Below are positions 4,127 through 27,271 of a stretch of DNA of 64,000 nt, piece by piece. The position numbers and the translations under genes are program-made. The DNA comes from Patescibacteria group bacterium UBA4787 (GTDB taxonomy: Bacteria > Patescibacteriota > Patescibacteriia > UBA2591 > UBA4787): contig DHGX01000004.1 in NCBI GenBank assembly GCA_002402995.1, positions 246,019 to 310,018 on the forward strand, in the 5' to 3' direction. Positions within the stretch are counted from its first letter, which is position 1, and every line of letters begins with the position of its first letter. The notes under the pieces were generated by a model, which had not been told where the DNA came from, did not search any database, and saw nothing but the letters and a program-made list of their open reading frames with translations.

Positions 4127-5188
4127 TCAGAAAAAATTATAAAATTTAACACGACTTAAATGTTCTTTTAAAGAATCAATTGTTATCGAAGTTAATCCGA
4201 TTCTACTAGGATCAATAACATTGATATTATTACCGTTTTTCCCGGCTAAAACAACGTAATGCCCGCCGCAAAAACATATCCCTTCGCCACATTTACTGTT
4301 TTGGCAATGACCGGGCACTGGGAGCTTTCTTATGGAAACAACCAACCAGCTACCATTATCTAAACCTTGCATAGCTTTGGCAAAATCATTTACCGTTTGT
4401 TCTCTGACTCCCCATTTTTGAGCAGCTTTGGGAGCCAACAGTTCAACATTTGTTCCGCCGCTACAATCTTTTCTTGCTCCAACTTCAATGGCATATTCAC
4501 CAACATCGCGAGGCGTAACTGATATTTCCTTGCTAGCCAAGACTATAGCCAAAGCCGTGGCGCCGCAACCAGAACTGCATAAATTACATTCTCGATTATT
4601 CTCTTCGGTATAAGCCATACTGCCCCATCGCGCATCGCATTGTTTATAATATAAACCTGCGCTTGTTTGATCGGCGATGCCATCATCAGATAATTCGCCG
4701 TCAATCGGCTCGTATTTAACTGTATACAAAGCAAGCGGTCGTAAAATAGTTAAGTTGGGATTAATGAAACCCAAAAAAAGACTAATACTTAGAATAATTA
4801 TCAAGCCCATAAAAGCGCCGGAGATTCTGGCTTTAGCGTTACTGATAGCTGGCGCGTTTCCACGCGACAAAACCCATTGAAAACCGGCAAACATAATCAT
4901 CACCACGGCCAGAATGGCTATCACGGCAACCGACCATTTATAAACAGCGATAACATAATCTCCTATCCAAGAATAGGCTATGTTGCCTTCTGTTGTAACA
5001 GGTGATTTGAATCCGCCAAAGCCCGGTATTTCAATTTGGAGGCGAGGTGTTACGATTTTTTTCTGATTTTGCGGCTGAATATTTGAATCCGTATCAGCTT
5101 TAGCCGCCTGAAACAAACAGAAAAAAACAATTATTGATAAAACAACAATTAATAATATAAATAAAAGATTTATTCGTTTGAAAAGCAT
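4127..5188 (-). CDS. TrbC/VirB2-like pilin-fold membrane protein fused to a C-terminal C39-like (papain-fold) peptidase domain
   Basis: 353 aa. A signal/TM segment is followed by two long hydrophobic helices separated by a short basic loop (YKWSVAVIAILAVVMIMFAGFQWVLSRGN...ISGAFMGLIIILSISLFLGFINPNL), which is the VirB2/TrbC pilin hairpin architecture. The C-terminal domain has Q..W..CNLCSSGCGATALAIVLA (catalytic Cys context of Peptidase_C39_2) and a later GGHYVVLAG His motif. A paralogue lies at 6586-7815. Confidence 0.5.
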   Translation of the reverse strand: MLFKRINLLFILLIVVLSIIVFFCLFQAAKADTDSNIQPQNQKKIVTPRLQIEIPGFGGFKSPVTTEGNIAYSWIGDYVIAVYKWSVAVIAILAVVMIMFAGFQWVLSRGNAPAISNAKARISGAFMGLIIILSISLFLGFINPNLTILRPLALYTVKYEPIDGELSDDGIADQTSAGLYYKQCDARWGSMAYTEENNRECNLCSSGCGATALAIVLASKEISVTPRDVGEYAIEVGARKDCSGGTNVELLAPKAAQKWGVREQTVNDFAKAMQGLDNGSWLVVSIRKLPVPGHCQNSKCGEGICFCGGHYVVLAGKNGNNINVIDPSRIGLTSITIDSLKEHLSRVKFYNFF

Positions 5189-5193
5189 ATAAT

Positions 5194-6486
5194 CTATTTC
5201 AATTTGATTGATTTCAAGTATGATGTATCTTTATCAACAAAATATAACGTGCTTTCGTCTGACGAAAGATAAAGGTTAGTAGTATTATAACTGCCCAACG
5301 CCCCTTCGGCCAAAAATGAAACTACTCCTGTTTTAAGATCAACGCGATAAAAATCGTCTTTGGCGTCATCTGCCAATTCTCGAAAAAGACCGGATCCATC
5401 CGGCAAGTTTTTCGGCACCGCGCAATATAAAGAAGCGCCGCTCGCGTTAAAAACGCATTTATCGGCCCAAGTATTTAAATTAGTGGCGATTTTATTGGCT
5501 CCGGTATTGTCGCCGCCTGTCGCATCCACAACATATAAACTGGGCCTAAAACCATTAACACTGGTATAAACGCTGTAAGCGATCTTATCTCCCTGGGGCG
5601 CCCATTCTGGCAAAAATCCCCTGCCTTCAACAATAATTGATTTATAATTTTCTCTATTCTGACCAACCAATAGAATCTCTTGTTGCCAACCGTCTCGCGG
5701 TTCACCGGTTTTAGAAAAAGCCACTACTTGACCGGCTGGCGACCAATTAACGATCACCTTGTCAGCGTTATCGCCCATTGCTTCAATCGGCGTAACTCTT
5801 GTGCCGTCGGGATTAGATACGGCCAGCCAGCGATTTTCGGGAAACTGACTATCTAGCTTAAAAGCTAAACGCGAGCCGACAGAATTCCAAGAAAATTCCG
5901 ACCAATTTTGCGGCAAAGTATATTGCTTGTCTTTGGAAAAATCATACATAATTTTAAAACCATCCGGATATTCAATAACCGCGCGATCCTTGGTCGGCGC
6001 CCAGCTGACATTTTTAACGTCAAAAAATTGTTTTTGGGAAATTAAAGTTTTTTGACCGTTTTGGTCCAGCTTATAAAATCGACTGTCGCTGCTATTATAA
6101 TAAATATTACCCATACCATCTAAAGATGGAGACAAAAAACCAACGGGATCTGCGCCCACCGGATTAATCCACGTTCTTCCACCTTCGGCGATGTCGGAAA
6201 TTTGCGGCGTCACAGGCTCTTCTTCCGGTACTGCTGGCGTCACCAGTTCTTCTTCTCCGGGCCAAACATTAAGGGGTAATCCCCTTCTAGCTTTTTCAGA
6301 AATAGACATCTGTTCCCAAGCTTCTCGTGTTACCGGTAACTTAGTAACCTGGATCGGAGTTACGACTTCTGTCGGTTGAATCGATGGTTCAGCCGCCCGA
6401 AAGAAAAAATAATACAGCAAAAAACCTATAACTACTACAAGTAAAATAAAACCAATAACTATTAATATCTTTTTTTTAGGAAACAT
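5194..6486 (-). CDS. Membrane-anchored hypothetical protein with a Pro/Glu-rich linker and a probable TolB-like beta-propeller domain
   Basis: 430 aa. N-terminal TM (KKKILIVIGFILLVVVIGFLLYYFFF), a PEEEPVTP linker, then repetitive beta-strand-rich segments (YYNSSDSRFYKLDQNGQ; WAPQGDKIAYSVY; STLYFVDKDT) reminiscent of PD40/TolB repeats. There is no catalytic signature. Confidence 0.35.
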   Translation of the reverse strand: MFPKKKILIVIGFILLVVVIGFLLYYFFFRAAEPSIQPTEVVTPIQVTKLPVTREAWEQMSISEKARRGLPLNVWPGEEELVTPAVPEEEPVTPQISDIAEGGRTWINPVGADPVGFLSPSLDGMGNIYYNSSDSRFYKLDQNGQKTLISQKQFFDVKNVSWAPTKDRAVIEYPDGFKIMYDFSKDKQYTLPQNWSEFSWNSVGSRLAFKLDSQFPENRWLAVSNPDGTRVTPIEAMGDNADKVIVNWSPAGQVVAFSKTGEPRDGWQQEILLVGQNRENYKSIIVEGRGFLPEWAPQGDKIAYSVYTSVNGFRPSLYVVDATGGDNTGANKIATNLNTWADKCVFNASGASLYCAVPKNLPDGSGLFRELADDAKDDFYRVDLKTGVVSFLAEGALGSYNTTNLYLSSDESTLYFVDKDTSYLKSIKLK

Positions 6487-6585
6487 AATGAATTAGAATT
6501 TAGAAAGTAGAAAATAAAATTAAAATATAAAATAAAAACAAAAAATAGAAAGTATGAATTAGAATTTATAATTTAGATTATTAAA

Positions 6586-7815
6586 TTAACGTAGAGACCA
6601 ACCAGTTCCTGGCTTAAAACAACAAATTCTTTTAGTTGGATCAAACCCATCGCCACAATCGGCAATATTAAGCCCCCCCGAACTTTCACAGACACTACAT
6701 AATTCTCTTTTTTCGTCTAAGTTACAACTTTTATCAGGATAAGGAGTGCACTTATTTTTAGAAAAATATCTATCTCCTGTTTCTGTTCCTGTTAATTTAA
6801 CGGTTACATAAGTGCAACCTTTTCGGGAGTGAACGACATCAAAAACTGACCCACTGCAACGCGTTCCTATTTGATTAGGAACAAAAGCGCTGGACGCAAT
6901 CATTGCTACAGGACCCAAAGGAGCAGCCACAAAAAAAGTATCAGCGCTTTGGCCGCAACTAAACTCATTGAGATCAACCTCTGGACCGCCGATAAAATAG
7001 TTTTTTAGCCCAGTTCCGTCTTCCTTAGCTAATGAAATCGTACCCGCCAACCTACATTCTGCTTTTTTAACATTATATTTAGTAGTAATATCTGGAGTCT
7101 TAGGATCCTTGGCGACATCTTCTCGCCATTTTAAGATATCAGACTGGGACACTTCAAGGTTTAATTCGCAAATAGTTCCAGCGCCGCACTCTGTACCAAT
7201 TACTTTCTGTAGTTGTCCATCGGAGGTAGTGACCATAGTGGAAACGCCGCACATCCGAGCGCCGATACGCGCATAAGCGCCTGGCTCACCAGACGGAGGG
7301 GTTGTCGTGAGGTCAAGGGGTTTATACCAACTAAATTGGGTCAATCGAATCGGAATATCCGTTGAAGCAATCTCGCGGGCAACGGGTTTAATCGTCAAGT
7401 CTTTAAATATGACCAAATTAGGATTAATAAAACTCAAAAAAGCATAAGCAAAAATAATAATCACTAAGCCCACTAAGGCGCTGGTGATCTGCGACTTAGC
7501 GCTGGTGATCGCGCTCACATTACCTCGACTGGTGATCATTTTAAAACCGGCCACCATAATCATTACTACGGCTAAAATAGCTACGGCGCTGATACCCCAT
7601 TTATAAGCCGCGATAATATAATCTCCGATACTTCGGCCTGTAATAGCGAAAAACGAACCTCCTTGTATTTTTGTTCCCGGAATAGTAACCTGTGGTATAA
7701 AATTAACGCCGCCGCTAGTTGGATTAGTTTGGGCTAAAACCGGTAAACTTAAAACGAGAAATAACAAGAAAAACAGTGTTACTAAAAAATAAATTTTTCT
7801 GTTTCGTAGGTTCAT
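6586..7815 (-). CDS. TrbC/VirB2-like pilin-fold membrane protein with a Cys-rich C-terminal extracellular extension (paralogue of 4127-5188)
   Basis: 409 aa. It has the same N-terminal module as 4127-5188 (GDYIIAAYKWGISAVAILAVVMIMVAGFKMITSRGN...ITSALVGLVIIIFAYAFLSFINPNL). The C-terminal roughly 250 aa contain many Cys (CGVS, CGAG, CSGS, CSVCESS, CGDGFDPTKRICC) but lack the C39 signature. Confidence 0.45.
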   Translation of the reverse strand: MNLRNRKIYFLVTLFFLLFLVLSLPVLAQTNPTSGGVNFIPQVTIPGTKIQGGSFFAITGRSIGDYIIAAYKWGISAVAILAVVMIMVAGFKMITSRGNVSAITSAKSQITSALVGLVIIIFAYAFLSFINPNLVIFKDLTIKPVAREIASTDIPIRLTQFSWYKPLDLTTTPPSGEPGAYARIGARMCGVSTMVTTSDGQLQKVIGTECGAGTICELNLEVSQSDILKWREDVAKDPKTPDITTKYNVKKAECRLAGTISLAKEDGTGLKNYFIGGPEVDLNEFSCGQSADTFFVAAPLGPVAMIASSAFVPNQIGTRCSGSVFDVVHSRKGCTYVTVKLTGTETGDRYFSKNKCTPYPDKSCNLDEKRELCSVCESSGGLNIADCGDGFDPTKRICCFKPGTGWSLR

Positions 7816-7978
7816 GGCATTAAAATTATCAACTAATTTACGAATCCTTTATTTACCCCGTTAGAAGTCTGTCTTTATACGATTAAACACCGCCCTCGGA
7901 CAGACTTATGTTCTTTGGTTTACCCTCGTTAGTGTCCACAAAAAATTTTTTATCAAAAAAATTTTTTGTCAAGGACTT

Positions 7979-8836
7979 CTAACGGGGTTTAAATAAATCG
8001 CCTATCGCTTTTAACCCAATTTCTATTGCTTCTAACGGGTGTGTCATATAATAAATATAAACTAAACAAATAAAAATAGCGAACAAAACAATTAAATTAC
8101 ATAAGATTACAACCCAAATCTCTAAAAGTTCTAAGGCGCCACCAACTTGTTTCGTTAAACCGGCACTGGATGACCCTCCATCACCTGCCATATCCTTGCC
8201 CATGGTAGCGCCAGTCTTGCTTGCCGTAGCCGCTGCTGCGGACGTCCCAGTCTTCAACCCACCGCCGCCGCCTTGCCACTCTTCGCCATAACGGCAGAAA
8301 TACTCTGATTTAAAAACATAACGCATAATGCCGTGAAAGTTTATATAAATCAATGGCAGAACATAATAAACAACTTTCCAGCATGCGGCTAAAGCCTTGG
8401 CCGTGCCCATTTGAGCGCCTTGTTTTAATTTATTCGTTACCTGCCCCTCATCTTGAGACAATCTCTCTTCCTCTCCGCCAAGTTTTAACGAGTCTTTGGT
8501 TTTTTGTCTGGCTAAAACTTTGGCTGATGACTCGCCTTGTCGCTGAAGCTCTAGTCGCCATCGTAGCTCCGACGAAACGGGCTCACCTCTCTGGCTCGAT
8601 TCTTCTGTTCCGCCCTCTTCAATCGCGTCATCTTCGGATCCTTCCGCCTCGTTCTGTGGCTCTGATTCTTCGCGCCCCTCCTGCCTCCTACTTAAAAGAT
8701 CTGGCAAATTATCGGTTATACTATTGCGCAGAAATTTTGGCATTTGGCCAATATTGACTCCCGCGCCTTGAAGTCTAGCGGTTGTCTTTTGGCGTTCGAG
8801 ATCGCGGACAATTCTATTTTCATTAACAGGGTTCAT
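7979..8836 (-). CDS. Hypothetical protein with an acidic N-terminal region, a Gly/Ala/Thr-rich low-complexity segment and a C-terminal TM anchor
   Basis: 285 aa ORF in the same operon as the VirB4 homologue. C-terminal hydrophobic helix WVVILCNLIVLFAIFICLVYIYY. No recognisable domain. Confidence 0.3.
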   Translation of the reverse strand: MNPVNENRIVRDLERQKTTARLQGAGVNIGQMPKFLRNSITDNLPDLLSRRQEGREESEPQNEAEGSEDDAIEEGGTEESSQRGEPVSSELRWRLELQRQGESSAKVLARQKTKDSLKLGGEEERLSQDEGQVTNKLKQGAQMGTAKALAACWKVVYYVLPLIYINFHGIMRYVFKSEYFCRYGEEWQGGGGGLKTGTSAAAATASKTGATMGKDMAGDGGSSSAGLTKQVGGALELLEIWVVILCNLIVLFAIFICLVYIYYMTHPLEAIEIGLKAIGDLFKPR

Positions 8837-8869
8837 TCAAATCAAAATATATTAATTTTTAAAAAAGAA

Positions 8870-9433
8870 CTAATCTTTGTTAGAAAAAACAATATCGTCA
8901 ATCTTCCATCCTATAGATTCTTTAACGAAATACAAAACCGCGTTTTTATAAAAAATACTTACTTTGCCACCTATAGTCTCTGTCTGCTGACAAACGGCCT
9001 CGAAAACAGCGTTATTTCCTTCTATTTTTTGCCAATTATAAGAAATAACCTTGGTAATAATCTCTTGAAAATCGATTTTATTTTGATTAACAACTGCTTC
9101 GCTCTGTTTTATTAATTTCGACGTCATAGATTCAGACAACTCTTGAAGATTGATAATCGCGTTTTCTTTAGTATAACTTCCATAACGCTCAATAAACGAA
9201 CGAGCGATGGGCGTTAATTCGTTTTTGGTTATTTCTTCCGCGCTTAATAACGGCAGTTTATTCTCCGCTATTGATCCGTTGGTAGGAACATTCTGCTGAT
9301 TATTGGCTAAATTATCTTGCACGCGGATCTCTTTGGGCGCGGATTTTTCAGAATACCACAAACTGAGAAGATAAATTCCCAATCCTAAAACAGCGATAGC
9401 TAAAGCAATAATTAAAATTTTCTTTTTGGACAT
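8870..9433 (-). CDS. Hypothetical N-terminally anchored protein
   Basis: 187 aa. N-terminal TM (ILIIALAIAVLGLGIYLLSLWY). No recognisable catalytic motifs. Located in the T4SS-like locus. Confidence 0.3.
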   Translation of the reverse strand: MSKKKILIIALAIAVLGLGIYLLSLWYSEKSAPKEIRVQDNLANNQQNVPTNGSIAENKLPLLSAEEITKNELTPIARSFIERYGSYTKENAIINLQELSESMTSKLIKQSEAVVNQNKIDFQEIITKVISYNWQKIEGNNAVFEAVCQQTETIGGKVSIFYKNAVLYFVKESIGWKIDDIVFSNKD

Positions 9434-9473
9434 AGTTATATAAATTACGAATTACTAATTAATAATTACGAAT

Positions 9474-9625
9474 TATTAGAAAACGCAAAACTTAAAACGA
9501 AAAGCTCAAAAGAACAGTGTAAAATTCAAAACTTTAGCATATAAATACGCTCGTTTTTTTAATTCTATTTTAGGTTTTGAGCTATTGTTTTGCATTTTGC
9601 GCTTTTAGCTTTACGCTCACATCCT
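9474..9625 (-). repeat. Internally deleted copy of the roughly 460-bp four-helix-bundle gene cassette
   Basis: The sequence from 9541 to about 9625 is roughly 90% identical to 13318-13400. The sequence 9474-9535 matches 12944-12995. The roughly 305 bp of ORF body between them is absent. Confidence 0.6.
9506..9595 (-). pseudogene. Truncated remnant of a four-helix-bundle protein gene: the first 20 codons joined directly to the 3' flank
   Basis: Minus-strand translation from the ATG at 9595 gives MQNNSSKPKIELKKRAYLYA, near-identical to the N-terminus of the intact gene at 12995-13375 (MQNNNSKPKIELKKRVYLYA). It then runs into sequence matching the intact gene's 3' flank and stops after 29 codons. 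The flanks 9474-9535 and 9596-9625 match 12944-12995 and 13376-13402. Confidence 0.6.
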
Positions 9626-9629
9626 GTTA

Positions 9630-11645
9630 CTAAATATTCAAATCTTCTTTAGTTAAGTCTTCTGACATATCCCAGTCCACCTTTGTCGCTTCTGCTACAG
9701 GCTTCTCTGTGTTTTGTTTTTGCGATTGAGTAACGGCGGCTTTTTCTTCGGCCACCAATGATTCGGAAAACTCTTTTTTAGCTTTTTCTATTTCTAAAAT
9801 TTTTCTCGGATCGGTAGTGACTAACTGATCTTCCGAGTAAGAAGCTATTACTTTAATAGCGGCGTGCTTCGCGCCGGCGAAGAATATACCTTCGCCCACC
9901 CCGCACTCTAAAAGCAAATATTTTTCTCCTTCGGTCAACATAAATGTCGAGGCCACATTCTCAATGGCTGCTGGCGCTTGTTTTAATAAAAGCTGCAAGG
10001 CTGAATTGTTGATAATCGCCTTGCCATAAGAGGATGACAAGAAATCATTAACATCCTGCGTAATTGTAGTTATACCAAGATAATATTTACGGCAACGCTT
10101 AACCAAAGCAAAAATAAAACGGGCAGAATCTTCGTGCTGCATCAGCCACCATGCCTCGTCTATCACCAATATTCTTTTTTTCATCCGCGAACGAACAATA
10201 TTCCAAATATAATTTACGATGGTATAAATAGCGACTGGCCTCAATTCGTCTTCCAGATCGCGCACACTGAAAACGACCAATTGATTATCTATTTCCACGT
10301 TGGTCTGATGGTTTAACAAGCCGGAAAACGTTCCTTCTGTATATTTTTTTAAGCGCTCAGCTAAATCGCCGGCTCCTTCCATTCCCTCTAAAACTTGTTC
10401 TAAGTCGGAAAGCGTAGGCATAGTAACTTTAGATAAATCAACGCCCGGGACAATATCATTTTTAGCATAAGACTCCAAAAGCGCCCGATCCATAACAGAA
10501 TCTTCTCGAGGCGTAAATTGGCGGACTCCTCTCTCGTCGGGCGAGGCGATCATAATTTTTAACAAACCCTTTAGGATAATAACCGCGGAACGAATAAGAT
10601 TAGCCGTATCTACTTCACCCGTACTGGGCCGAGGAATATCAAATGGATTAATGCGGCTTTCTGAAGTTAAAGATATGTTAACAAAAGTGCCACCAACCGC
10701 GTCAGACAAATATTTATATTCTTTTTCCGGATCAATTATAATCACATCTGTACCGAGCATTAAGCTCCTCAAAATTTCCAACTTAATCGCATAGCTTTTC
10801 CCTGAGCCAGAAGTGGCAAAAACAACCATATTTCCATTTTGCAAACTAAAACGATCGAAAAGAATCAAACTATTATTGTGACGATTTATGCCGTATAAAA
10901 CCCCATCGTTTGATGTTAAATCAGACGAGATAAAGGGAAAAGAAGAAGCAATAGGCGAACTATTCATATTAAAATTGATCATTAACTCGTCGTTTCCCAA
11001 AGGAAGCGTCGAATTAAAGCCCTGTTCGGCTTGATATAAAACTCTCTTAGTATAAATCAGTTTTGAACCGAATAAAGTTTCTATTTTTTCAGAAGTATTA
11101 TCAAGATCTTTCGGATTATCGGCATAGATAGTAACATACAAAGCGAACTGGAAAAAATGTTCAACGCCAGTTGTTAAATCGTCTCTTAATTTTTCAATGT
11201 CTCTTAAAGCTGTTTCTTTTAAAGGATCTCGTGGCATGCCTTTCTCCTGTTCAGCGGCTATTTCTTGCTCTAAATTACCGGTTTTCTTCTGTAATTGTTT
11301 TAAAACTTCACCGGAAGGTACAGGATAAAAAAACATACCGATATCTAGAGGTCCATTAAAATTAATAACGGGCGCGAACCAACCAACGGCAATATAACGC
11401 GGATAAGTAATCACAAATATTGTTCTCACGTATTTATCTCCCAATTGAAGATAATTCGGCGTAATTCTCATAGAAGCCGGAGCAACAAGATCGCGCACCG
11501 AAACAACGCCGGCCAAATAAGCTTTTTCTTGTTCTAACGCCTCTTTGGTCTCTGTTGTTTTTATTTTTTCTGATATTTCTTTCTCTTGTTTTTTTATTTC
11601 TTCAGTCGGCGATTTAGTATTAATTGTCCTCGGATCAAAAACCAT
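9630..11645 (-). CDS. Type IV secretion system ATPase, VirB4/TrbE/TraC family
   Basis: 671 aa. Walker A VVFATSGSGKSY. Walker B and hydrophobic stretch RILVIDEAWWLM. The N-terminal domain is conserved with the CagE/TrbE/VirB4 family (DIGMFFYPV..., FQFALYVTIYADN). Confidence 0.8.
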   Translation of the reverse strand: MVFDPRTINTKSPTEEIKKQEKEISEKIKTTETKEALEQEKAYLAGVVSVRDLVAPASMRITPNYLQLGDKYVRTIFVITYPRYIAVGWFAPVINFNGPLDIGMFFYPVPSGEVLKQLQKKTGNLEQEIAAEQEKGMPRDPLKETALRDIEKLRDDLTTGVEHFFQFALYVTIYADNPKDLDNTSEKIETLFGSKLIYTKRVLYQAEQGFNSTLPLGNDELMINFNMNSSPIASSFPFISSDLTSNDGVLYGINRHNNSLILFDRFSLQNGNMVVFATSGSGKSYAIKLEILRSLMLGTDVIIIDPEKEYKYLSDAVGGTFVNISLTSESRINPFDIPRPSTGEVDTANLIRSAVIILKGLLKIMIASPDERGVRQFTPREDSVMDRALLESYAKNDIVPGVDLSKVTMPTLSDLEQVLEGMEGAGDLAERLKKYTEGTFSGLLNHQTNVEIDNQLVVFSVRDLEDELRPVAIYTIVNYIWNIVRSRMKKRILVIDEAWWLMQHEDSARFIFALVKRCRKYYLGITTITQDVNDFLSSSYGKAIINNSALQLLLKQAPAAIENVASTFMLTEGEKYLLLECGVGEGIFFAGAKHAAIKVIASYSEDQLVTTDPRKILEIEKAKKEFSESLVAEEKAAVTQSQKQNTEKPVAEATKVDWDMSEDLTKEDLNI

Positions 11646-11761
11646 AAAAATTAGAATTTAGAATAATGAATTAAAAAATCCTGAAGCTTGAAACTTGTTT
11701 TTAAAAATTTAAAATTTTGATTTGTCATTTTGCATTTTGATTTTTAAATTTTGAATTTCTA

Positions 11762-12442
11762 TTACTCCTCTATTCTTAATTCATTTATATCTGTTAATTT
11801 TTGAGTTTGCGCTTCGAGTGGATTATAAGTTTCGTATAATAATTCAATAACGCTTTGGGTATCTAACGGCACAGCCTTCAAACCCATGCTGGCAAGCGCG
11901 CTAATTACACCATCAACACGGCGAAAAAGCACCTCTCGATAATCTTCAAATTTTTCTCTTTTTAATTTGATAAATGTGCCGACGGAAAATACGTCTTGCA
12001 AGCGAGAAAAAAATCCTCTTTTTTTATCACCGGCCGGATTATAGGGAACCAATAAATAAAATCTTTTGCTCATAATTTCTCCTAATTCTACTAACTCGCC
12101 CACGAAATCAATATAATCGGAGATCTGGACACGCAATAAATCATTCTTTTGATTCTGGCGCAAAGTTTTCAATTTTTCCAAATATGGCTCAATGACAAAT
12201 TTTCTCGATTGAATAACTATTTGTATTGGAAATTCTAAAGTATTTAAAAATTGAACATAAGCTTGAACAAGCGCCTCTTGTTCTTCTTGCGATTTTAAAC
12301 CAAAATTAATAGAAGAAACCAATAAAATAGCTCTAAGTGTCCCGTCTTTCAAGACAACGATATCTTTTTTTACTTCGGAAATATCCAAATATTGCTGTGT
12401 CGAAGTTGATAATTTTTTTCCTGCTAATTTCTCGGATTTCAT
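11762..12442 (-). CDS. Hypothetical cytoplasmic protein, a possible T4SS accessory component
   Basis: 226 aa, directly upstream of the VirB4 homologue in the same orientation. The segment DISEVKKDIVVLKDGTLRAILLVSSINFGLKSQEEQEALVQAY loosely resembles VirB4 N-terminal-domain sequence. There is no ATPase motif. Confidence 0.25.
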   Translation of the reverse strand: MKSEKLAGKKLSTSTQQYLDISEVKKDIVVLKDGTLRAILLVSSINFGLKSQEEQEALVQAYVQFLNTLEFPIQIVIQSRKFVIEPYLEKLKTLRQNQKNDLLRVQISDYIDFVGELVELGEIMSKRFYLLVPYNPAGDKKRGFFSRLQDVFSVGTFIKLKREKFEDYREVLFRRVDGVISALASMGLKAVPLDTQSVIELLYETYNPLEAQTQKLTDINELRIEE

Positions 12443-12471
12443 AATAAATTAGAATAATTTAGAATAATAAA

Positions 12472-12978
12472 TCAATCTTCTTTGTAAGCGCCACCCGTAT
12501 CTATTAATAGAGACAAATGGGAAAGCTTAGCGGTACTTAACGGTTTACGCGGTATCTCAATGTCGATTTTAGTTTTTTTTGCCCAATCTTTTTCTTCAAT
12601 TTTCGCTACGATTGGCCGCCAAATTCTTAATCCGGGTTTTCTGGCAGTTTGGAGAACGTTTAAAAAAAAGAAATGAATCGGCTTGCCGTTAACTCGACCG
12701 AAAGCCAACAAGCCAAAAATGATCAAAATTATTATTCCCTCCACTAAAAATAAACTAAAATCAGATGATTTATAGGCGATAAGCTCCAAAGCAGCCCCAA
12801 TAATTAAAATAACAAATTGTCTTGGTGTTAAGGGACCTAAAATATGAGGCTCAATATCGATAAATTGTGGAACGATAAATTGCATAGAAAGATTAGAATT
12901 TAGTAAGTAGAAAGTAGAAAATAGAATCAACGAATAATGAATTATTAGAAAGCGCAAAACGTAAAGCGAAAAACTCAA
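12472..12978 (-). CDS. Small membrane protein, possibly a VirB3/PrgI-like T4SS component
   Basis: 168 aa with 2-3 predicted TM helices (PRQFVILIIGAALELIAY; GIIILIIFGLLAFG). It is positioned upstream of the VirB4 homologue, as VirB3 usually is. The call rests mainly on position. Confidence 0.3.
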   Translation of the reverse strand: MSFSLYVLRFLIIHYSLILFSTFYLLNSNLSMQFIVPQFIDIEPHILGPLTPRQFVILIIGAALELIAYKSSDFSLFLVEGIIILIIFGLLAFGRVNGKPIHFFFLNVLQTARKPGLRIWRPIVAKIEEKDWAKKTKIDIEIPRKPLSTAKLSHLSLLIDTGGAYKED

Positions 12979-12994
12979 AATAACAGCGTAAAAT

Positions 12995-13375: not shown

Positions 13376-13413
13376 TTTTCGTTTTTAGCTTTACGCTTAC
13401 TTCTATTTTCTAA

Positions 13414-20900: not shown

Positions 20901-23900
20901 GCGCAAGAAATAGCGGCATTGTCAGACAACTGATCGCAACGCAACACATAATCACAAACATTTTTAAAGATATTTTCTGTTTTTGACCACTGTGGAGTAG
21001 AACCAGCGCAAGTCAGCCATTCACCGCATTCACGATCGCGGACAACTTTAATAATGGCGTTAGCGTCATTACCGCTTTGAGAATATCGCGCGCAATATTT
21101 GCAATAATCCGCGTCTTGATTATTGGAAATCTCGCAATCCAAAGTCTTCTTACAATCAACCGGCATAACTAAATCATATTTTTTCTCCTCGCTCTTTTTA
21201 TAAGTCGCGACTGAATTATAAGTAAAAGGCGTGGTGCCGTTATGATAATCTTTCAAACTACTATCCGCGAAAAGAATACAACCGGCTTTCGGGCTAACCT
21301 GACCATTACATGAGGTACGATCTAATTTAGTATTATTTAGATAATAATAAGGTTCAAGGGACTTGATTTCAACATCATCAAGAGAAGCTATTCCTCTTCC
21401 CATAGTATCAGCCGCATAAGCTTGATCAATAATTCTAAAATTAACAACAGCTTCTTTAATTTTTAAACTGCGCGGATTAAGCGGACCCGCGGCGGCTATA
21501 ACTTGGGAAAAATCGTGCCATCTGCCATCTATCATTGTTGAGTCACCTTGATAAATGACGGATATTGACGCATTAGTCCAATAACCATGGGTTATAACCC
21601 ATGCCCATCCATTGGGTATATTTATTACATCAAAACCAGCGCTTAAAGAATCTAAACACTTTGCCAGCGGAACTTCGGAGTTAGTTAGCGTAGCTGGATC
21701 ATAAGAACAAGGGGGAATATCATTTGGCGCTGGCAATCTATCGATACAATCAAGAATCCCATTACTACCGCTACTACCGTCTCTGTTAATAATGTCTATA
21801 CCCTTCCATTTTCCGTTATCCCACTTGTAACAAGCAGCCCAATCCTGCCATTCTCCGGTAGTAAACGCGTCGGATACGGTTATTCCATCATCCTTATAAT
21901 ACGCGGGAACACCCGACATGCCTTCAAAATTTAAGTCCACTGAAAGGTGCGCTATACTCTTTCTGTTGGGTATTTCACTATTATTTAAACCAATGGGTGT
22001 CAATAAATTATCAACTTTTATTTTGGCTTTTATAACATAATTACTGCCGGGCAAAGATATGGATGGTTTTATTTGTTGAGTGACAGCAGCCGCAAACCAG
22101 GACACCCCTGATGGTGCGTTCGTTACAAAACTGGCGTTTCGACTATCAATGCTCAATAATTTATTCTCGCCTTCTTGGGTAATCCCCACTGTTATAGAAC
22201 CTTTATCTACAAAATCATAATTTGTTGCATCATACCATGGGGAGGTAAGAGTCAAGCTATCTTCAAAACTTCCATTCTTTACTAAATTAAGAACCGCGGT
22301 GGCTTGAGTGTCAACAAAACTAGCGCAAGAATTTTGGCTGGAAGGACAAACGCCCACCCAATTATCGTAATTGCTTTCACCGGCCCAACGAATACCATAA
22401 GTTAACCCATCAGGCTGATAAGGATTTCCTTTGTTCGGGCCTTCTTCAGTATTATAATAACAAGCCTGATTAGTTCCTTTCTTGAACCAACCGCTTTTGA
22501 CTTCACTTCCGATATTAACATTCTCGCGATATTCGCATAATTTATTTTTTGGGTCGCGGAAATAAGCTTTAGATTTACTGCTCGCGTCAAAAAATTCTTC
22601 GCAACCCTGTCCGTTTTGATCGCATAAAATTGGACGGCGATCATAGAGATCAGGATCGTTTTTCAAATATTGATCAGACCAACCGACCACCGCGCCGTTT
22701 ATATCTAAAGTAGGCAAACCAAAACGCTCACAACCCTTAAATTCCGCTTTACAAATTTTTCTCGAATCAATCACTAAATAATCAACGCTGTCTGCCGGAA
22801 CATTTACGTCGTCAGTCAAAACCGCTGTATCTTTGTTAAATTCTTGGCCGAAAGGCGAAGAAGAATTATGGGTATCAATTACCAAATCGCAACCAACTTT
22901 ATCGTCCGGACATAAGCTACTGAAAGATTTGAGATAAGAAAATTTTCCAGCTCTATCTTTATAGCTGTCGCAGCCAATCATAAAACCCGGCGCTGAATTA
23001 TTGTTGTAATCTCTATCACAGACCAGCGGCGTTTTCCAAGAATTTTTAACGAGATAGATATTGCTAGTTATTTCTTGAAGTTTAATATTATCTAAATAAA
23101 ATCCTGTTGATGGTCCGGCGATAAACAAGCTTTCGTTGATATCTACGTCGCGGCTAAAATTAACCGGTCCAAGTTTAACTTCCTGCCACTCATCGCTAGC
23201 GATATTCTTAGAACCAAAAGACAGATCACTGCCAAATTTTGCCGAATAAGTTCCGCTACCCTTAACCCAGAAAGTTATCAAATATGATTTATCTTTCTTA
23301 ACCGAATTTTTTACTACGCGACTCACCGAATTAGTGCTTAAGACTCGCATAGAATGACCGCCCAACTTTATAGACTCTGTGCTTTGCAAAACATCACCCG
23401 TCCATAGAGTTATACTATTGTCAGCAGTTTCAAACTGATCATTAAACAAAGTTTTCATATTATTGGCGTTGTTGCCCTTATACTCGCGGCAGCCAACATT
23501 CGCCTTACCGCAAGAAACTCCCTCGCTTGGTATGGCCATATAAACGCAAATTCCCGTAGCAGGGTCATAACTCGTTCCCGGCACATCATTGGTTGGACAA
23601 TAAGCATTATCAACCGAAGTAGTCTTCCTAAACGGATGGCAATCTTGTGAACAGCTTATCGTGTTCTCATAAATACGATAATAAACCTCACCCGTGGCAC
23701 TATAAAATTGTTTACAGTGCGGATTGACCAAGATATCGTCTGCTCCGGCGCAAGACCCCAAATCCAAACGTAGATTAGAAACAACCGCTGGACCAGCATC
23801 ATTACCCTGTTTTAAATAATATCTTTTCAGTTGATATCCCGTAGTGTCGGAACCGATCCAGGTATAATAAGGATTGCAAACAACTTGACCGATCGCGACA

Positions 23901-26900
23901 GGATTGTTGTTCTGATCGGTTCTTACGCACTGCCTAAGATAAGAATAATACTCTTTTCCTTCACCGCCTTTGGCAACTTCATCTAGATTAGTAAATTCTT
24001 CGCATCCCACATCCGAAGCTGGACAACTCTTGCCGGTTGCCGAAATAAAATTAGTGAACGGCACGGCTGATTCAAAATTAGTAGCCGACTGACGAAAAGT
24101 ATTATAACCCACGCAATCCGAAGGGCACGTGTCTTCATTTTTAACAATAGCCGGAAAAGCGCTACCAGAAGAAATATTAGTATAAAGTTCGCACCCAACC
24201 TCCGTGGCGCTGCATTTTTTCGTAAAATTAGCGCACTTAACCGGATCTTCGTTGATAGTTCCACATTTCAAATAATCCGGCGCAGTTTTTAAATAAATTT
24301 TATTAATAGACGCGTATTCTTTATAAGGAGTGGTGTTCGCGCCTGATTCTAATTGAAAATCGTCAAAATAAATATCGCCGTTGATGTCATCACCTGGTTC
24401 CCATCTCAAAGTACGAACATCTAATTCTGAACCGTTAATTATTAACGGATAATTAAATGTGTAAATCAAACGTTGCCAATTATTAGTGATTTTTTGTTGA
24501 GAAATTTCTACCACGTTACTGCTGTCCACCGGGTTCGCGAAAAGATGAAGATTGATAGACTTTTCCGGTCTAACCCAAATCGAGAAAGTATATTGTTTGC
24601 CGATCGCGAGTGGCAGAGAAACGTCCGGATTAATCCGCGGACTGCCCCAAGCAGAAATAACTTTCGCCACTGCCTTGCCAGAATAAGCAAGGTTTTGATC
24701 CGCCAAGAAAAATCCGCCCTCAATATCCCAACCGTTTACACTGGTGAGCTGGCCTTGATTGTCGACATTATAATTTTCAAAACTACCATTCGGAATTAAA
24801 TTAACACCGGAACCGACCGTTGCTTGAATATATTCATGGCAACCCTCGTTGTCATTGGAACAGGCGCTAATATTTTTATTAAAAAAAATGACATTGCTTT
24901 GGTTGCCAACGACTTCCGGTCCAGAGCAAGTCCATGTCAAAATTTCTTTATTGTCAACAACTTCCGGTCCATAATTTTTACAATACCACCCGCAACCTAC
25001 ATTATTTTGATCGCAACCGCTAAAATCAATTGTATTTTTAACGAATGATTTTTCTTCGCCGGTATTAACATTTTTATAAATAGAACATGATTCATATTGT
25101 TTGGAGCATTCATCTCCTCCGAAACGCCAGATATTTTTTTCACGAGTGCAATAACCCCAACCCAAACACTGTCCCTTCTCGTCTGTTTTAAGACAATCTT
25201 TCAAGTCAACGCAAACTTCCTGCCTTTGATTAGAGTCGCCCAGCGGAACCGCGCCATAACCCCTGGCTTCACAGAAAAATTGCGGGATACTCAAAATCCA
25301 ATTTGGATCAACGAGGCGGTGGAACGGACTGTTCTCTTGATTGAAGCCATCAACGACTTCTTTCAAAGTATAATTTTTATTTCCCAATTCTCCGTTGGAA
25401 ATTTTTGTCGCGGCAATTTCTAAACCAAGAGGCGTGATTCTGGCGCGACGTAATTTTTTAATATTTGTTAAACTGAATCTTTCGTTGCAATCATTAAATC
25501 TATCGGCTTTGCCAATTTCGCCGACGGTCCAATTTTTATTCAAGAGATTTTTCTCTATCGCTTCGCTAATAGACATTTTCTCTTCAATCGCGCGACGGAA
25601 ACCAGCATCAATAACATTGGTATCCGGCAACACATAATTAGCCCGATCTATATAACTGGAATAATTTTCCAATAAATCAACCTGTCCGCCACTTCTAATT
25701 GGGGCCGTGGCTAAATCAGCCATAGCAATTTTAGACTCTGTCGCGCCAGGATTAAAAACAACCTTTCCGGACGGATCAATACTCCAGCTCGTATCAGGAT
25801 CTTCTGAAGGATTTAAGCCTTTTTTAAGTCTATCTAAAAGCTTACTTATTAAAGTATTAGTAAAAATGCCAATGGCGTCAGCTGCGGCTACGCCAGTGTA
25901 TTGTTTAACGCTGGCCGTGCCCTCCTGAACTGCTTTACGCGCTTGTTCTCCGACCAAAGTAGATGGCGTTTTAATTTTTCCGGAAACTAAACTCTCAATG
26001 CCCTTCATTGGACCATTAATTAAACCCCATACTTTTTTCTCTTCCTCGCGGGCAGCTTTTTCTAATTGAGCCTGTTCAGAAAGAACCATTAAAGCTCCCA
26101 GGTCGCTACCCGAAGCTGACATATCCTTCTGAAGATCTTCTAATGTAGTATTAGGACCGCCACCCGCATAACTCGGGCTTTCTACGCCGGCAATAAACTT
26201 AGTCACTCGCCCGTTAATTTCGGTAATCTGGCTAAGTAATTGACTAAAATAGGTTTGAGCCCTATTAGTTTGCGCCTTACAACAATTCGCATATTTCAAA
26301 GTGCAATCGGTCCCGATAGTATCACAACCCGTCAATCCTTCATTACAATAACCGCGACACTTGGGATTGCCACAAAAGTCGTTAACCGAGGCAATCGAAC
26401 AACTGACCGGATCGTCCATATTATTATTGGTAAAACAAGTGGTTTTATTTGGCAGGTCTTGAAGTTTTTTATTTTCTACTTTCAACTTATTCAAAAGGCC
26501 TTCATTAGCTATTACCGAGATATCCGGCCACTTTTGGTTGATGTCGTCTAAATATCCGGTGATTCTATTAAAAGAATTATTAATATCTGTTTTAAAACAG
26601 TCTATGACATACCTGGTCGTTTGATTAATCGAGGTGTCAGCATTATAAAGCTGGTTCAATTGTTCTAATCTGGCGCCGAATTCATCGCCAGTTTCCGTAT
26701 CAGCGCTAAAACTAACCAAATTCTTTTTTAATAAATCGCCTTGCGCTTTTCTAATTTTACTTAATGAACACAGTTTATTTTGAGATATGGGCGGCATTTT
26801 TGAAGAAATATCCGGAAGACTAAGAATTAATTTAAATTTTAATTGCGGATCAAGCGGATCGCAGAGGCTTTGGTTAATGAAACCTGAAGCTTGAGCGGTT

Positions 26901-27271
26901 TTATCAATAAATTCACCCAGGGCTTCGTCGCCGGCTTTTTTCCAATATTGAGGGTCGGTTAAAAACAACGGCTTCTGTCCCTTGCCACCGCTGGCTACAT
27001 ATTCAGCAGACTGTTGAGCCATTTGCCCTAAATAAACATTAAGCGCGTTTTTATAAGCCACGGCTCCGCCAACTTTCCATGCATATTTTAATAAATCGTT
27101 CACGCGCTCCCATACCCATTTTCCGATTTGCATGGCGATATGGCCGACATCGGTGAACTGCGCCTGGGCCGGTTCGGGATAAAATAAAATTGGCGATAAT
27201 ATCGACAAAAACATCGTTAATAAAACGATGCCGCTTAATAACTTAAAACCTATTTTTTTATTTAGGGACAT
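17960..27271 (-). CDS. Giant secreted or surface protein (3103 aa), Cys-rich, with three CBM-like jelly-roll modules and repeated Cys-knot-like modules; a putative adhesin or host-interaction protein
   Basis: Single uninterrupted 9.3-kb ORF. N-terminal signal/TM (LLSGIVLLTMFLSILSPILFYPEPAQAQ). Three NGSFE/FxxW jelly-roll-like segments (LIPNGSFENYNVDNQGQLTSVNGWDIEGG...; LVKNGSFEDSLTLTSPWYDATNY...; LFNDQFETADNSITLWTGDV...). At least five copies of C-x(2-3)-[ND]-x-D-C-G-x-G-x-C modules (CNIDADCIGTNGLGQGNC, CSINADCGAGGIC, CATNADCGSGSC, CTDSLQCGNGVC, CASNTDCGVENAAC). No LPXTG or other recognisable anchor. Confidence 0.6.
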   Translation of the reverse strand: MSLNKKIGFKLLSGIVLLTMFLSILSPILFYPEPAQAQFTDVGHIAMQIGKWVWERVNDLLKYAWKVGGAVAYKNALNVYLGQMAQQSAEYVASGGKGQKPLFLTDPQYWKKAGDEALGEFIDKTAQASGFINQSLCDPLDPQLKFKLILSLPDISSKMPPISQNKLCSLSKIRKAQGDLLKKNLVSFSADTETGDEFGARLEQLNQLYNADTSINQTTRYVIDCFKTDINNSFNRITGYLDDINQKWPDISVIANEGLLNKLKVENKKLQDLPNKTTCFTNNNMDDPVSCSIASVNDFCGNPKCRGYCNEGLTGCDTIGTDCTLKYANCCKAQTNRAQTYFSQLLSQITEINGRVTKFIAGVESPSYAGGGPNTTLEDLQKDMSASGSDLGALMVLSEQAQLEKAAREEEKKVWGLINGPMKGIESLVSGKIKTPSTLVGEQARKAVQEGTASVKQYTGVAAADAIGIFTNTLISKLLDRLKKGLNPSEDPDTSWSIDPSGKVVFNPGATESKIAMADLATAPIRSGGQVDLLENYSSYIDRANYVLPDTNVIDAGFRRAIEEKMSISEAIEKNLLNKNWTVGEIGKADRFNDCNERFSLTNIKKLRRARITPLGLEIAATKISNGELGNKNYTLKEVVDGFNQENSPFHRLVDPNWILSIPQFFCEARGYGAVPLGDSNQRQEVCVDLKDCLKTDEKGQCLGWGYCTREKNIWRFGGDECSKQYESCSIYKNVNTGEEKSFVKNTIDFSGCDQNNVGCGWYCKNYGPEVVDNKEILTWTCSGPEVVGNQSNVIFFNKNISACSNDNEGCHEYIQATVGSGVNLIPNGSFENYNVDNQGQLTSVNGWDIEGGFFLADQNLAYSGKAVAKVISAWGSPRINPDVSLPLAIGKQYTFSIWVRPEKSINLHLFANPVDSSNVVEISQQKITNNWQRLIYTFNYPLIINGSELDVRTLRWEPGDDINGDIYFDDFQLESGANTTPYKEYASINKIYLKTAPDYLKCGTINEDPVKCANFTKKCSATEVGCELYTNISSGSAFPAIVKNEDTCPSDCVGYNTFRQSATNFESAVPFTNFISATGKSCPASDVGCEEFTNLDEVAKGGEGKEYYSYLRQCVRTDQNNNPVAIGQVVCNPYYTWIGSDTTGYQLKRYYLKQGNDAGPAVVSNLRLDLGSCAGADDILVNPHCKQFYSATGEVYYRIYENTISCSQDCHPFRKTTSVDNAYCPTNDVPGTSYDPATGICVYMAIPSEGVSCGKANVGCREYKGNNANNMKTLFNDQFETADNSITLWTGDVLQSTESIKLGGHSMRVLSTNSVSRVVKNSVKKDKSYLITFWVKGSGTYSAKFGSDLSFGSKNIASDEWQEVKLGPVNFSRDVDINESLFIAGPSTGFYLDNIKLQEITSNIYLVKNSWKTPLVCDRDYNNNSAPGFMIGCDSYKDRAGKFSYLKSFSSLCPDDKVGCDLVIDTHNSSSPFGQEFNKDTAVLTDDVNVPADSVDYLVIDSRKICKAEFKGCERFGLPTLDINGAVVGWSDQYLKNDPDLYDRRPILCDQNGQGCEEFFDASSKSKAYFRDPKNKLCEYRENVNIGSEVKSGWFKKGTNQACYYNTEEGPNKGNPYQPDGLTYGIRWAGESNYDNWVGVCPSSQNSCASFVDTQATAVLNLVKNGSFEDSLTLTSPWYDATNYDFVDKGSITVGITQEGENKLLSIDSRNASFVTNAPSGVSWFAAAVTQQIKPSISLPGSNYVIKAKIKVDNLLTPIGLNNSEIPNRKSIAHLSVDLNFEGMSGVPAYYKDDGITVSDAFTTGEWQDWAACYKWDNGKWKGIDIINRDGSSGSNGILDCIDRLPAPNDIPPCSYDPATLTNSEVPLAKCLDSLSAGFDVINIPNGWAWVITHGYWTNASISVIYQGDSTMIDGRWHDFSQVIAAAGPLNPRSLKIKEAVVNFRIIDQAYAADTMGRGIASLDDVEIKSLEPYYYLNNTKLDRTSCNGQVSPKAGCILFADSSLKDYHNGTTPFTYNSVATYKKSEEKKYDLVMPVDCKKTLDCEISNNQDADYCKYCARYSQSGNDANAIIKVVRDRECGEWLTCAGSTPQWSKTENIFKNVCDYVLRCDQLSDNAAISCAHPVVTNNPDILNEAEYKARDVSWAGRDYSGYSLYNYYPVENLAPKLYREHNENIYKLTSSLRGELRCISGKTSLIGESCATNADCGSGSCVGTTCSAGNSAPISTAGNTCNIDADCIGTNGLGQGNCEYPAGTSWTCSSGSRQYVSNTTGCSINADCGAGGICLPPAACCGFCVEGGAGSSGNTSMRLKNNNDFSIATKDFRMALFWCGYGCSSTCPEGMSCDTSTCAKLCDGNGYIDLSGNSCTDSLQCGNGVCQANTAKICSANSYKKDSYEGSPCASNTDCGVENAACAFKCNIDSKIDNFGGFCDVKGSNALQCGLLDDGTPGECSDDAGVDGRGRVIDKTCRLYPEIDSPFAPGLSDKYKGINICQPIDDNNTQSYLYRDCQCAYKKGEYSGTVNYLTYIEDQWLGICSAEGQCGDAKLGEECAPSQDPYNSGCTRLSKKTTAIGQRGYCLERDLSVPGELNSCLTWWPGSAAVGDPDIYNQYQSAGYYTNISVWYSAFGASTAQNISSGLQFTLDGSNSYGVCGRPDANILGYYEVDNYGVVSWVNNNDIPIYFDQIDQVSLYFQEWGGNYGKTVCGDDSGGGDDEITGSGWVNLNISNNFDLTQPSGNCSDGNNFVGVSAGADSGGRLRIGIQLCDNSEHTGTTSISQIIVSIKNGASYVAKIADANNFTKAWTNRLKGYETTAIIDDAFYATICLPYGSSGSPKPSTLIVSGTICDNRHGFVYTSKDSLKNLFAKSYEAYSFNTTTRQYSNGAQLWSPDDSQLSLSVTGHSAPKVASVKCTGGELSGEGSCSLGAIGKITINNEDTNNLTGSGSIYPAVLKFYAWADKNHMPIREVMVDWDDGKPLSSGSNTMLAKNHKPMCCSSNADCLNLGISQNDEVYQRDGTSYLNFGNVPNACTPTYFQFNHLYHCEGPAQCSFKPTVYVKDNWGWCNGGNHVGDDNCCEDSNSSDNKCDVRSNGTSFSGSILLKP

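Follow-up and report, generated by a model that had tools for sequence, protein, structure and literature searches.

McLean 2020 (PMC7427843) reports type IV secretion systems (T4SSs) in Saccharibacteria genomes, and Southlakia epibionticum cannot grow as an epibiont without its T4SS and the T4SS pilins, although coupling and relaxase proteins are lacking (Wang 2023, PMC10633639). A survey of 2,474 virB4 genes that included the class ABY1 (Quinonero-Coronel 2025, PMC12102498) described a Patescibacteria-specific VirB4 clade related to the mating-pair-formation type MPF-FATA, with TrsD as its most abundant partner and with PrgI/VirB3, VirB6 and arrays of VirB2-like pilins (PF18895, PF04956). 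According to the same survey, relaxases were almost absent, homologues of type IV coupling proteins (T4CPs) lay rarely near virB4 and KsgA (RsmA) lay commonly near it; for ABY1 it recorded comF, recG and radA in the locus, as well as the few detectable VirB8 homologues. A 2025 T4SS review (PMC12857230) and a 2024 perspective (PMC11665869) treat the system as a new T4SS subgroup whose function is open. Here, we analysed a 64,000-nt stretch of contig DHGX01000004.1 of Patescibacteria group bacterium UBA4787 (the window, to which all position numbers refer), in which a split VirB4, PrgI/VirB3, an extended VirB6 and two pilins are encoded in a conserved order with no conjugation genes nearby. We consider it likely that this locus is a chromosomal, vertically inherited T4SS of an ABY1 patescibacterium, derived from monoderm (MPF-FATA) conjugation machinery, that contacts and exchanges material with a host and does not conjugate.

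The cluster is a co-directional minus-strand string at 4127-28180 (~24 kb). Its T4SS and accessory genes, from the upstream end and with the basis of each assignment in brackets, are as follows.

27407..28180, minus strand: membrane-anchored protein of 257 aa with a transmembrane (TM) helix at residues 17-35 and TSP3 calcium-binding repeats (Pfam TSP3_bac, 50 bits, cut-off 25)
17960..27271, minus strand: giant secreted protein of 3103 aa (signal peptide, CBM_4_9)
15116..17839, minus strand: extended VirB6-like polytopic protein of 907 aa, with a helical membrane domain of ~330 aa and a 577-aa tail (predicted structure)
13414..15087, minus strand: conserved protein of 557 aa with no TM segment and no family match (conserved gene position)
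12472..12978 (probable ATG at 12885), minus strand: PrgI/VirB3-like small membrane protein, ~137 aa from its likely start (Pfam PrgI)
11762..12442, minus strand: TrsD-like protein of 226 aa, roughly the VirB4 N-terminal domain as a separate gene (NCBIfam TrsD, E 1.5e-7)
9630..11645, minus strand: VirB4 ATPase of the MPF-FATA (CD1110/PrgJ) type, 671 aa (NCBIfam conju_CD1110, Pfam P-loop_TraG)
8870..9433, minus strand: bitopic protein of 187 aa with an N-terminal TM helix at residues 6-24 and an outer domain of ~150 aa, candidate PrgL/VirB8-like (hhalign, gene position)
7979..8836, minus strand: membrane protein of 285 aa, charged in its N-terminal half and hydrophobic at ~150-170 and 240-258, no family assigned (sequence features)
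6586..7815, minus strand: VirB2-like pilin of 409 aa with a signal peptide, a two-helix pilin core and a Cys-rich C-terminal domain of ~270 aa (Pfam T4SS_pilin)
5194..6486, minus strand: membrane-anchored TolB-like beta-propeller of 430 aa (NCBIfam propeller_TolB, E 1e-6; TM helix at residues 7-25)
4127..5188, minus strand: VirB2-like pilin core with a C-terminal C39-like papain-fold cysteine peptidase, 353 aa (Pfam Peptidase_C39_2, T4SS_pilin)

Like the Southlakia epibionticum cluster (SEML1_0006-0019) and the surveyed system, the locus combined an MPF-FATA-related VirB4, TrsD, PrgI/VirB3, VirB6 and pilins in a monoderm cluster, had no relaxase or T4CP nearby and lay on the chromosome among housekeeping genes. 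An earlier interpretation of the window, made from its letters without database searches (the sequence-only reading), had held its combination of a pilin-peptidase fusion, a coiled-coil-extended VirB6 and a giant Cys-rich exoprotein to be no described T4SS class. That claim is contradicted by the Patescibacteria T4SS publications of 2023–2025, in which the features listed as unusual are hallmarks of the system; since the absence of relaxases, the VirB2-like pilins in a monoderm and the rsmA/radA flanks had already been published, it is out of date. The host-interaction or attachment role that was suggested with it agrees with current opinion. The locus is of a known kind, the chromosomal MPF-FATA-derived Patescibacteria T4SS, and only its ABY1 embellishments may be new. 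Unlike the Southlakia cluster, which comes from Saccharimonadia and has an array of six short pilins, the ABY1 locus has two long-tailed pilins (one of them C39-like), a TSP3-anchor gene, a 3103-aa protein with a carbohydrate-binding module (CBM) and a TolB-like propeller between the pilins; it also has a candidate PrgL/VirB8-like gene after virB4, whereas no VirB8 was found in Southlakia. The candidate new details are the pair of TSP3 anchor and giant protein that heads the cluster in most contexts, the long-tailed ABY1 pilins and the pilin-C39-like fusion. Neither the giant/TSP3 pair nor long-tailed or enzyme-fused pilins were found by a term search of the survey (PMC12102498) or in the literature searched on the combined topics, and the T4SS papers examined describe no such fusion of a pilin to an enzyme.

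The MPF-FATA prototype, the Prg/Pcf system of Enterococcus faecalis pCF10, has the same order of adhesin genes, PrgH/VirB6-like, PrgI, PrgJ/VirB4 and bitopic PrgL-like genes, and is likewise associated with a papain-fold hydrolase domain (CHAP in PrgK; C39-like and LysM-CHAP in the window). In contrast to our locus, pCF10 encodes the T4CP PcfC, the relaxase PcfG and LPXTG adhesins, none of which was present here, and it has no pilin, whereas VirB2-like pilins are present here. Further differences are the split VirB4 (TrsD plus ATPase), the 577-aa tail of VirB6 and the fixed chromosomal position, pCF10 being a plasmid.

Relatives of VirB4 were found in 303 matching stretches of genome contigs, the best 80 of which (64–76% identity) were used for detailed locus comparison; homologous loci are labelled by L-numbers and homologous proteins by P-numbers. 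The VirB4/TrbE ATPase proposed at 9630-11645 was borne out, as the protein matched NCBIfam conju_CD1110 at 362.3 bits (cut-off 325) and Pfam P-loop_TraG at 99 bits, with further matches to AAA_10 and DUF87, and was 26% identical to pCF10 PrgJ (tblastn, E 1e-38). The conju_CD1110 match covered model positions 172-729 only, the protein being without the N-terminal ~170 residues of the family model. The product of 11762-12442, for which a precomputed PF26593 TraC-like match is on record, matched TrsD below the curated cut-off and covered positions 98-231 of VirB4_plasma and 2-100 of CD1110 (NCBIfam). Since the model start is missing from the one protein and its N-terminal positions are matched by the other, VirB4 is split over two genes; the TrsD-like gene adjoined virB4 in 79 of the 80 loci. 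The possible VirB3-like protein of the sequence-only reading was also sustained, by a slightly sub-threshold match of 12472-12978 to Pfam PrgI (25.9 bits, E 1.5e-5, cut-off 27) and by a PrgI-like gene in the same position in all 62 loci with enough upstream sequence. Its orthologues in L086, L087 and L091 carry PF12666. Alignments to homologues begin only at residue ~32 and gene-calling programs predict a protein of 137 aa, so translation probably starts at the ATG at 12885.

In the VirB6-like protein (15116-17839), 8 hydrophobic segments fall within residues 1-320 and precede the 577-aa tail, 36% of which is K/R/E/D. When residues 1-361 were modelled with AlphaFold2 (AF2) using 61 homologues (pLDDT 80.4, pTM 0.73), a Foldseek search against the PDB returned the R388 TrwI/VirB6 chains as best natural matches (probability 0.99, TM-score 0.50 on the target, E only 0.07). 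A homologue, P0061, matched nearly the whole Pfam TrbL model with an E of 4e-4 and 20.6 bits (cut-off 25.9). Among 308 VirB6-like homologues, those with a taxon name were all from Patescibacteria bar one labelled Nanoarchaeota, and those listed were mostly 800–1200 aa, so that the long tail is typical of the family as a whole, not an anomaly of this genome. Searched against PDB sequences, the family profile matched coiled-coil proteins only, because the tail dominates the profile; the profile of the tail matched SMC-type coiled coils with high compositional bias, and the tail contains 40 Gly and 17 Pro. The protein had been read as VirB6/TrbL-like with a 550-aa coiled-coil tail. The VirB6 fold was supported by the AF2 model and Foldseek, whereas a TrbL sequence match and a single continuous coiled coil were not, and we accept the protein as a putative VirB6-fold membrane subunit on its predicted fold, its own sequence falling outside Pfam TrbL. 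As in the extended VirB6 proteins of other T4SSs, such as those of Rickettsiales (PMC12857230), a polytopic VirB6-fold domain is followed by a large hydrophilic C-proximal domain. Unlike in those proteins, to which no sequence relationship was detectable, the patescibacterial tail is charged, of low conservation, 500–900 aa long and family-wide.

Between the VirB6-like gene and prgI, a homologue of the 557-aa protein (13414-15087) was present in 59 of the 62 loci with enough upstream sequence. This protein matched no Pfam or NCBIfam family; its conservation lies in the C-terminal ~115 aa and, less often, in the N-terminal ~230 aa. Directly downstream of virB4, a homologue of the bitopic 8870-9433 protein was found in 48 of 72 loci, and its family comprises 519 cluster representatives. 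The family aligned to the VirB8-like pCF10 PrgL by hhalign with an E of 2.4e-4, and a second profile gave an E of 9.7e-5 (probability 58%, 99 columns). The bitopic layout of the protein and its place in the gene order would suit an NTF2-like VirB8/PrgL subunit. Homologues of the 7979-8836 membrane protein lay just upstream of the VirB6-like gene in L029, L038, L054 and L055. Five proteins of the string had been described as lacking recognisable domains. Several could be assigned, as TrsD-like, TolB-like, 23S-rRNA-intervening-sequence (IVS) and candidate PrgL-like proteins, while 13414-15087 and 7979-8836 stayed without assignment.

Both paralogous VirB2-like pilin proteins that had been proposed were confirmed. 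The 6586-7815 protein, which contains 14 Cys in all, matched Pfam T4SS_pilin (PF18895) at 28.6 bits (cut-off 26.6) and the NCBIfam Mbov_0395 pilin-like model with an E of 6e-4; the 4127-5188 protein reached 22.7 bits, below the 26.6 cut-off of T4SS_pilin, and its pilin core was 46% identical to that of 6586-7815 (E 4e-28). Fusion of the 4127-5188 core to a papain-fold peptidase was likewise supported by Peptidase_C39_2 (PF13529), at 30.4 bits against a cut-off of 24. The motifs are typical of C39 peptidases, and the triad Cys208 (SGCGAT), His310 (GGHYVVL) and Asp326 (VIDPS) was invariant in 9 homologues, so the domain looks active, its putative catalytic triad being intact. The fusion is known in about nine metagenomic proteins. 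Complete pilin open reading frames (ORFs) of ABY1 loci were almost all 270–705 aa long with 10–54 Cys, and their C-terminal domains had no detectable similarity between loci; the pilin tails are hypervariable Cys-rich modules. Published conjugative-pilus structures show the N- and C-terminus of the pilin exposed on the outer face of the filament. The C-terminal domains would thus be displayed outward. The TolB-like gene (5194-6486) sits between the two pilin genes, and of 40 loci that extend far enough downstream, 13 likewise have it beside pilin genes.

All ORFs claimed by the sequence-only reading were present on the minus strand at their coordinates. The string at 4127-27271 stood as described, and its upstream end needs extension to take in 27407-28180. 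The housekeeping flanks were also as described, with mreC-radA beyond the last pilin gene (radA begins 38 bp downstream of it) and rsmA-leuS at the opposite end, and the remainder of the window holds housekeeping and type IV pilus genes. Since the genes in the first 31.6 kb of the window nearly all run in one direction, with a negative GC skew throughout, co-directionality alone is weak evidence of an operon. Across the 80 loci, the recurrent order was VirB6-like, 557-aa-type protein, PrgI, TrsD, VirB4, PrgL-like candidate, pilins plus beta-propeller gene, and radA, the last being found in 17 of the 34 loci whose sequence continues for 8 kb or more past virB4. The wider frame of the window (LysM-hydrolase, leuS, rsmA, small TSP3-type gene, giant, VirB6-like gene and the rest) recurred in L086 and L088, and L087 had the same housekeeping frame plus a toxin-antitoxin insertion. 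Informative titles among the contigs of VirB4 relatives were Falkowbacteria, Uhrbacteria, Magasanikbacteria, Parcubacteria and 'Patescibacteria group', which we take to be class ABY1 in GTDB; the remaining titles were generic or evidently mislabelled. As the same housekeeping neighbours recur in distant genomes, inheritance appears to have been vertical, and, judged from synteny and gene content, the locus is a fixed, vertically inherited chromosomal locus without mobile-element character, in line with the sequence-only reading, which had seen no obviously mobile element; the same neighbours were found across the whole bacterial class.

The giant protein (17960-27271) carries a Sec-type signal peptide (cleavage AQA-Q), 131 Cys and one CBM_4_9 module, and has no C-terminal anchor. 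Its 18 homologues (2626–3247 aa), of which the named ones are all from Patescibacteria, mostly contain CBM_4_9, and their alignment shows conserved Cys columns and repeated G-C-x-E/R-Y/F motifs throughout. Searches found no PDB sequence match for the protein and no repeats within it, and blastp did not relate it to the pilin tails. An AF2 model of its N-terminus (residues 1-830, 18 homologues) was too poor for a fold search (pLDDT 55, pTM 0.30) and was not used. A gene of 198–280 aa lay directly upstream of the giant homologue in all six contexts where this position was visible (L084, L085, L086, L087, L088 and L090); three of these six small genes had faint or weak TSP3_bac matches. The giant lay upstream of the VirB6-like gene, a few genes apart at most, in at least 11 independent contexts (L002, L035, L067, L068, L074 and L086-L091), and near rsmA in most contexts where the region was visible. 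T4SS genes were found downstream in 3 of 5 contexts around giant homologues (L086, L087, L088), and a protein of 2739–3025 aa upstream in 3 of 3 contexts around VirB6-like homologues. Among the first 80 loci, the C-terminus of the giant was detectable in 5, and a long ORF ran off the flank at that position in 13 of 31. The giant, Cys-rich and secreted protein claimed by the sequence-only reading was confirmed, and the pair that it forms with the TSP3 gene upstream heads the cluster. Linkage of the giant to the T4SS is the rule but has exceptions, the small upstream gene is its constant partner, and we regard the giant as a candidate host-surface adhesin.

The genes around the giant varied in two further loci. 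Six minus-strand genes, including a HEPN plus nucleotidyltransferase toxin-antitoxin pair, separated the giant from the VirB6-like gene in L087 (19974-22550), which indicates that this junction tolerates insertions. In L090 (16415-23030), five tandem paralogues of 358–498 aa with PEP-utilizers domains followed the VirB6-like gene and two uncharacterised genes, where PrgI and VirB4 were expected.

We weighed several other explanations of the locus. That VirB4, TrsD, PrgI and the VirB6-like gene have their homologues in monoderm conjugation systems, and that the GC content of the cluster is slightly above that of the rest of the window (0.396 vs 0.368), would fit an integrated conjugative element or the decayed remnant of one. 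The absence of conjugation genes claimed for the window was, however, confirmed: neither the 64-kb window nor any of 93 related loci matched pCF10 PcfC or PcfG by tblastn, and Pfam scans of window ORFs of at least 400 aa, all of which were assigned except 13414-15087, revealed no relaxase or T4CP and no large unassigned ORF able to encode either. The possibility of a relaxase and VirD4 immediately outside the window was followed for 3.5 kb on the right side only, where AsnRS and DnaB were found, and no VirD4 or relaxase. There is no tRNA beside the cluster, the direct repeats near it are only those of a small IVS element, and an integrase, bounding repeats in the window and patchy presence among relatives were sought and not found. 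Because the same cluster lies between the same housekeeping genes where VirB4 is only ~65% identical, synteny and gene content led us to reject an integrated element as very improbable. A nucleic-acid import device resembling the Helicobacter pylori ComB and Sulfolobales Ced systems, which are also VirB4-based and lack a relaxase, with RadA, ComFC and RecG processing host nucleic acid, seems unlikely to us. In its favour, radA adjoins the last pilin gene, a ComFC homologue lay within the examined virB4 flanks in 43 related loci (in many ABY1 relatives at most 10 kb from virB4), comFC-like and recG genes lay just downstream of the core genes in L091, and the association of comF, recG and radA in ABY1 has been published (PMC12102498). 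Nucleotide acquisition through the T4SS has also been proposed (PMC11665869), and a 2026 preprint describes tubular structures, possibly T4SS pili, at the parasite-host interface and links them to host RNA uptake. Against it, ComFC in the window (50792-51544) is ~39 kb from virB4, the adjacency may merely mirror housekeeping synteny in a tiny, mostly co-directional genome, and the cluster has no T4CP-like or ComEC-like channel partner. ComB and Ced move nucleic acid inward, and CedB gave only a weak partial match to the cluster. Furthermore, deletion of comEC in Southlakia ends competence and leaves the cells viable (PMC12857230), which separates competence from the essential T4SS function and weighs against a simple competence role.

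A different question is whether the giant and its TSP3 partner belong to the apparatus at all, as they could be a surface adhesin module in its own right, which happens to lie between rsmA and the T4SS genes and is neither component nor substrate of the T4SS. L084 (Magasanikbacteria) and L085 carry distant giant homologues in the order rsmA-TSP3-giant, followed by unrelated genes, and the next 10 kb downstream contain no T4SS genes. The giant may thus be a surface protein that is independent of the apparatus, and in these two contexts it was not linked to virB4, a linkage about which the sequence-only reading had asked. Other genes part the giant from the VirB6-like gene in L087, L089 and L091, the Sec signal peptide means that export of the giant needs no T4SS, and the pairing of giant and small TSP3-type gene held in every visible context. 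Set against this, at most a few genes separate the giant from the VirB6-like gene, both in the window and in the contexts listed above, some of which have giants of only ~30% identity; the giant and the pilin tails have a Cys-rich extracellular chemistry in common; and the adhesin genes of pCF10 likewise precede its channel genes. On this balance we hold an independent module to be a serious possibility, though not the one that we would choose.

Several results weigh against our own preferred reading of a host-contact T4SS. The VirB6 identity depends on a predicted structure, as Pfam TrbL (PF04610) gave no match to 15116-17839 even at an E of up to 10, and hhalign of the VirB6-like family to pCF10 PrgH covered 38 columns with a weak E of 0.055. 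The PrgL/VirB8-like identity of 8870-9433 is suggestive at the level of sequence profiles; the protein had no Pfam or PDB sequence match, and hhalign to PrgD was negative. Assembly of a pilus from pilins with C-terminal domains of 200–500 aa is an inference, a scan of 3900-18200 for promoters and terminators gave counts near those of shuffled sequence and no information on operon structure, and the giants of L084 and L085 stand apart from a T4SS. VirD4 homologues lie far from virB4 in many Patescibacteria (PMC12102498), so that a T4CP elsewhere in the genome is conceivable, and the essentiality data come from Saccharimonadia, a class other than ABY1.

If the locus is a host-contact T4SS, the split VirB4, PrgI, extended VirB6 and PrgL-like protein would form a membrane translocon that, driven by the ATPase, would assemble a pilus or surface conduit from the pilins. 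The C-terminal domains of the pilins, a C39-like peptidase and hypervariable Cys-rich modules, would face outward. Tethered by its TSP3 partner, the giant CBM protein could act as a host-surface adhesin in a role like that of the PrgB-type adhesins of pCF10; in that plasmid prgA, prgB and prgC precede prgH, prgI, prgJ, prgK and prgL, a parallel that supports an adhesin role for the head gene. Together, the outer domains of the pilins and the giant would touch, and perhaps locally degrade, the host envelope, and the apparatus would serve an epibiotic lifestyle by host-cell contact and exchange of material without conjugation. By analogy with Southlakia, the ABY1 system would probably be essential. 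A more elaborate version, which we offer as speculation and think improbable in full, is a decorated feeding pilus, in which enzyme-bearing and Cys-rich pilins are displayed, C39 cuts host envelope proteins or peptidoglycan cross-links, the giant docks to host glycans, VirB4/VirB6 import nucleic acid and RadA, ComFC and RecG process it.

Three further features lie within or beside the cluster.

31791..33092, plus strand: LysM-LysM-CHAP cell-wall hydrolase, divergent, beyond leuS (Pfam LysM twice, CHAP)
12995..13375, minus strand: 23S-rRNA-IVS protein of a four-helix-bundle family (Pfam PF05635, 67 bits)
9434..9633, minus strand: collapsed second copy of the IVS element, with both ends kept and ~310 bp of the ORF missing (repeats D4, D5)

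The CHAP domain of the hydrolase was 29% identical to that of pCF10 PrgK (E 1.6e-5), and a LysM-CHAP or LysM-M23 gene adjoined leuS in L085, L086 and L088. It is possibly a VirB1/PrgK-type helper, or a mere housekeeping autolysin, and its membership of the system is uncertain. The 12995-13375 ORF is enclosed by a 61-nt inverted repeat (I2, 12940-13000 and 13348-13408), so that its flanks pair into a long stem, and the same gene occupied differing intergenic spacers of the T4SS cluster in related loci (L005, L006, L008, L009, L018, L037, L043 and L054); it looks like a small mobile insertion more than a machine component. Direct repeats D4 and D5 match its flanks at 78–86%, and the two ends kept in the collapsed copy fold into a long hairpin in the spacer downstream of virB4 (fold z-score -2.7). 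A diversity-generating retroelement was considered, Avd belonging to PF05635, and was rejected, with no reverse transcriptase in the scanned ORFs and no repeats resembling a template/variable repeat pair.

The AT-rich motif TAGAAAGTAGAAAATAG (plus strand) recurs in the spacers 6487-6578, 12894-12938, 28178-28236, 42522-42566, 43164-43231 and 33073-33258; most copies lie just upstream of minus-strand gene starts, and the motif may be a promoter or 5'-UTR (untranslated region) element of the organism. A stretch of ~150 nt is repeated at 37756-37904 and 46223-46372, 8.5 kb apart, with segments of 51 and 80 nt at 88–90% identity; one copy lies upstream of recJ and the other overlaps the start of an aminoacyl-tRNA synthetase gene (44906-46294) and extends into the spacer beyond. 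The type IV pilus and competence genes of the window (49423-50634, 50792-51544, 57935-58720 and 58965-59471) encode PilM, a ComFC-like protein (double zinc ribbon plus phosphoribosyltransferase), PilD (prepilin peptidase) and a small N-methyl pilin. Many records of metagenome-assembled genomes with the locus (among them L002-L004, L006-L010 and L012) carry the title 'uncultured Gammaproteobacteria bacterium' (third-party annotation assemblies), and one contig (L072) and one protein (P0050) are labelled Nanoarchaeota; as the locus under such titles is clearly patescibacterial, the taxonomic labels of these records are unreliable.

The Patescibacteria T4SS is essential in the one species examined. 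The absence of relaxases and the rsmA/radA neighbours of the locus are features of the whole class and not peculiar to this genome. Within the system, the pair of giant CBM protein and TSP3 anchor is a candidate host-recognition module, the hypervariable Cys-rich or peptidase tails of the pilins are candidate determinants of host range or envelope breaching, and the widespread bitopic family represented by 8870-9433 may be the 'missing' VirB8.

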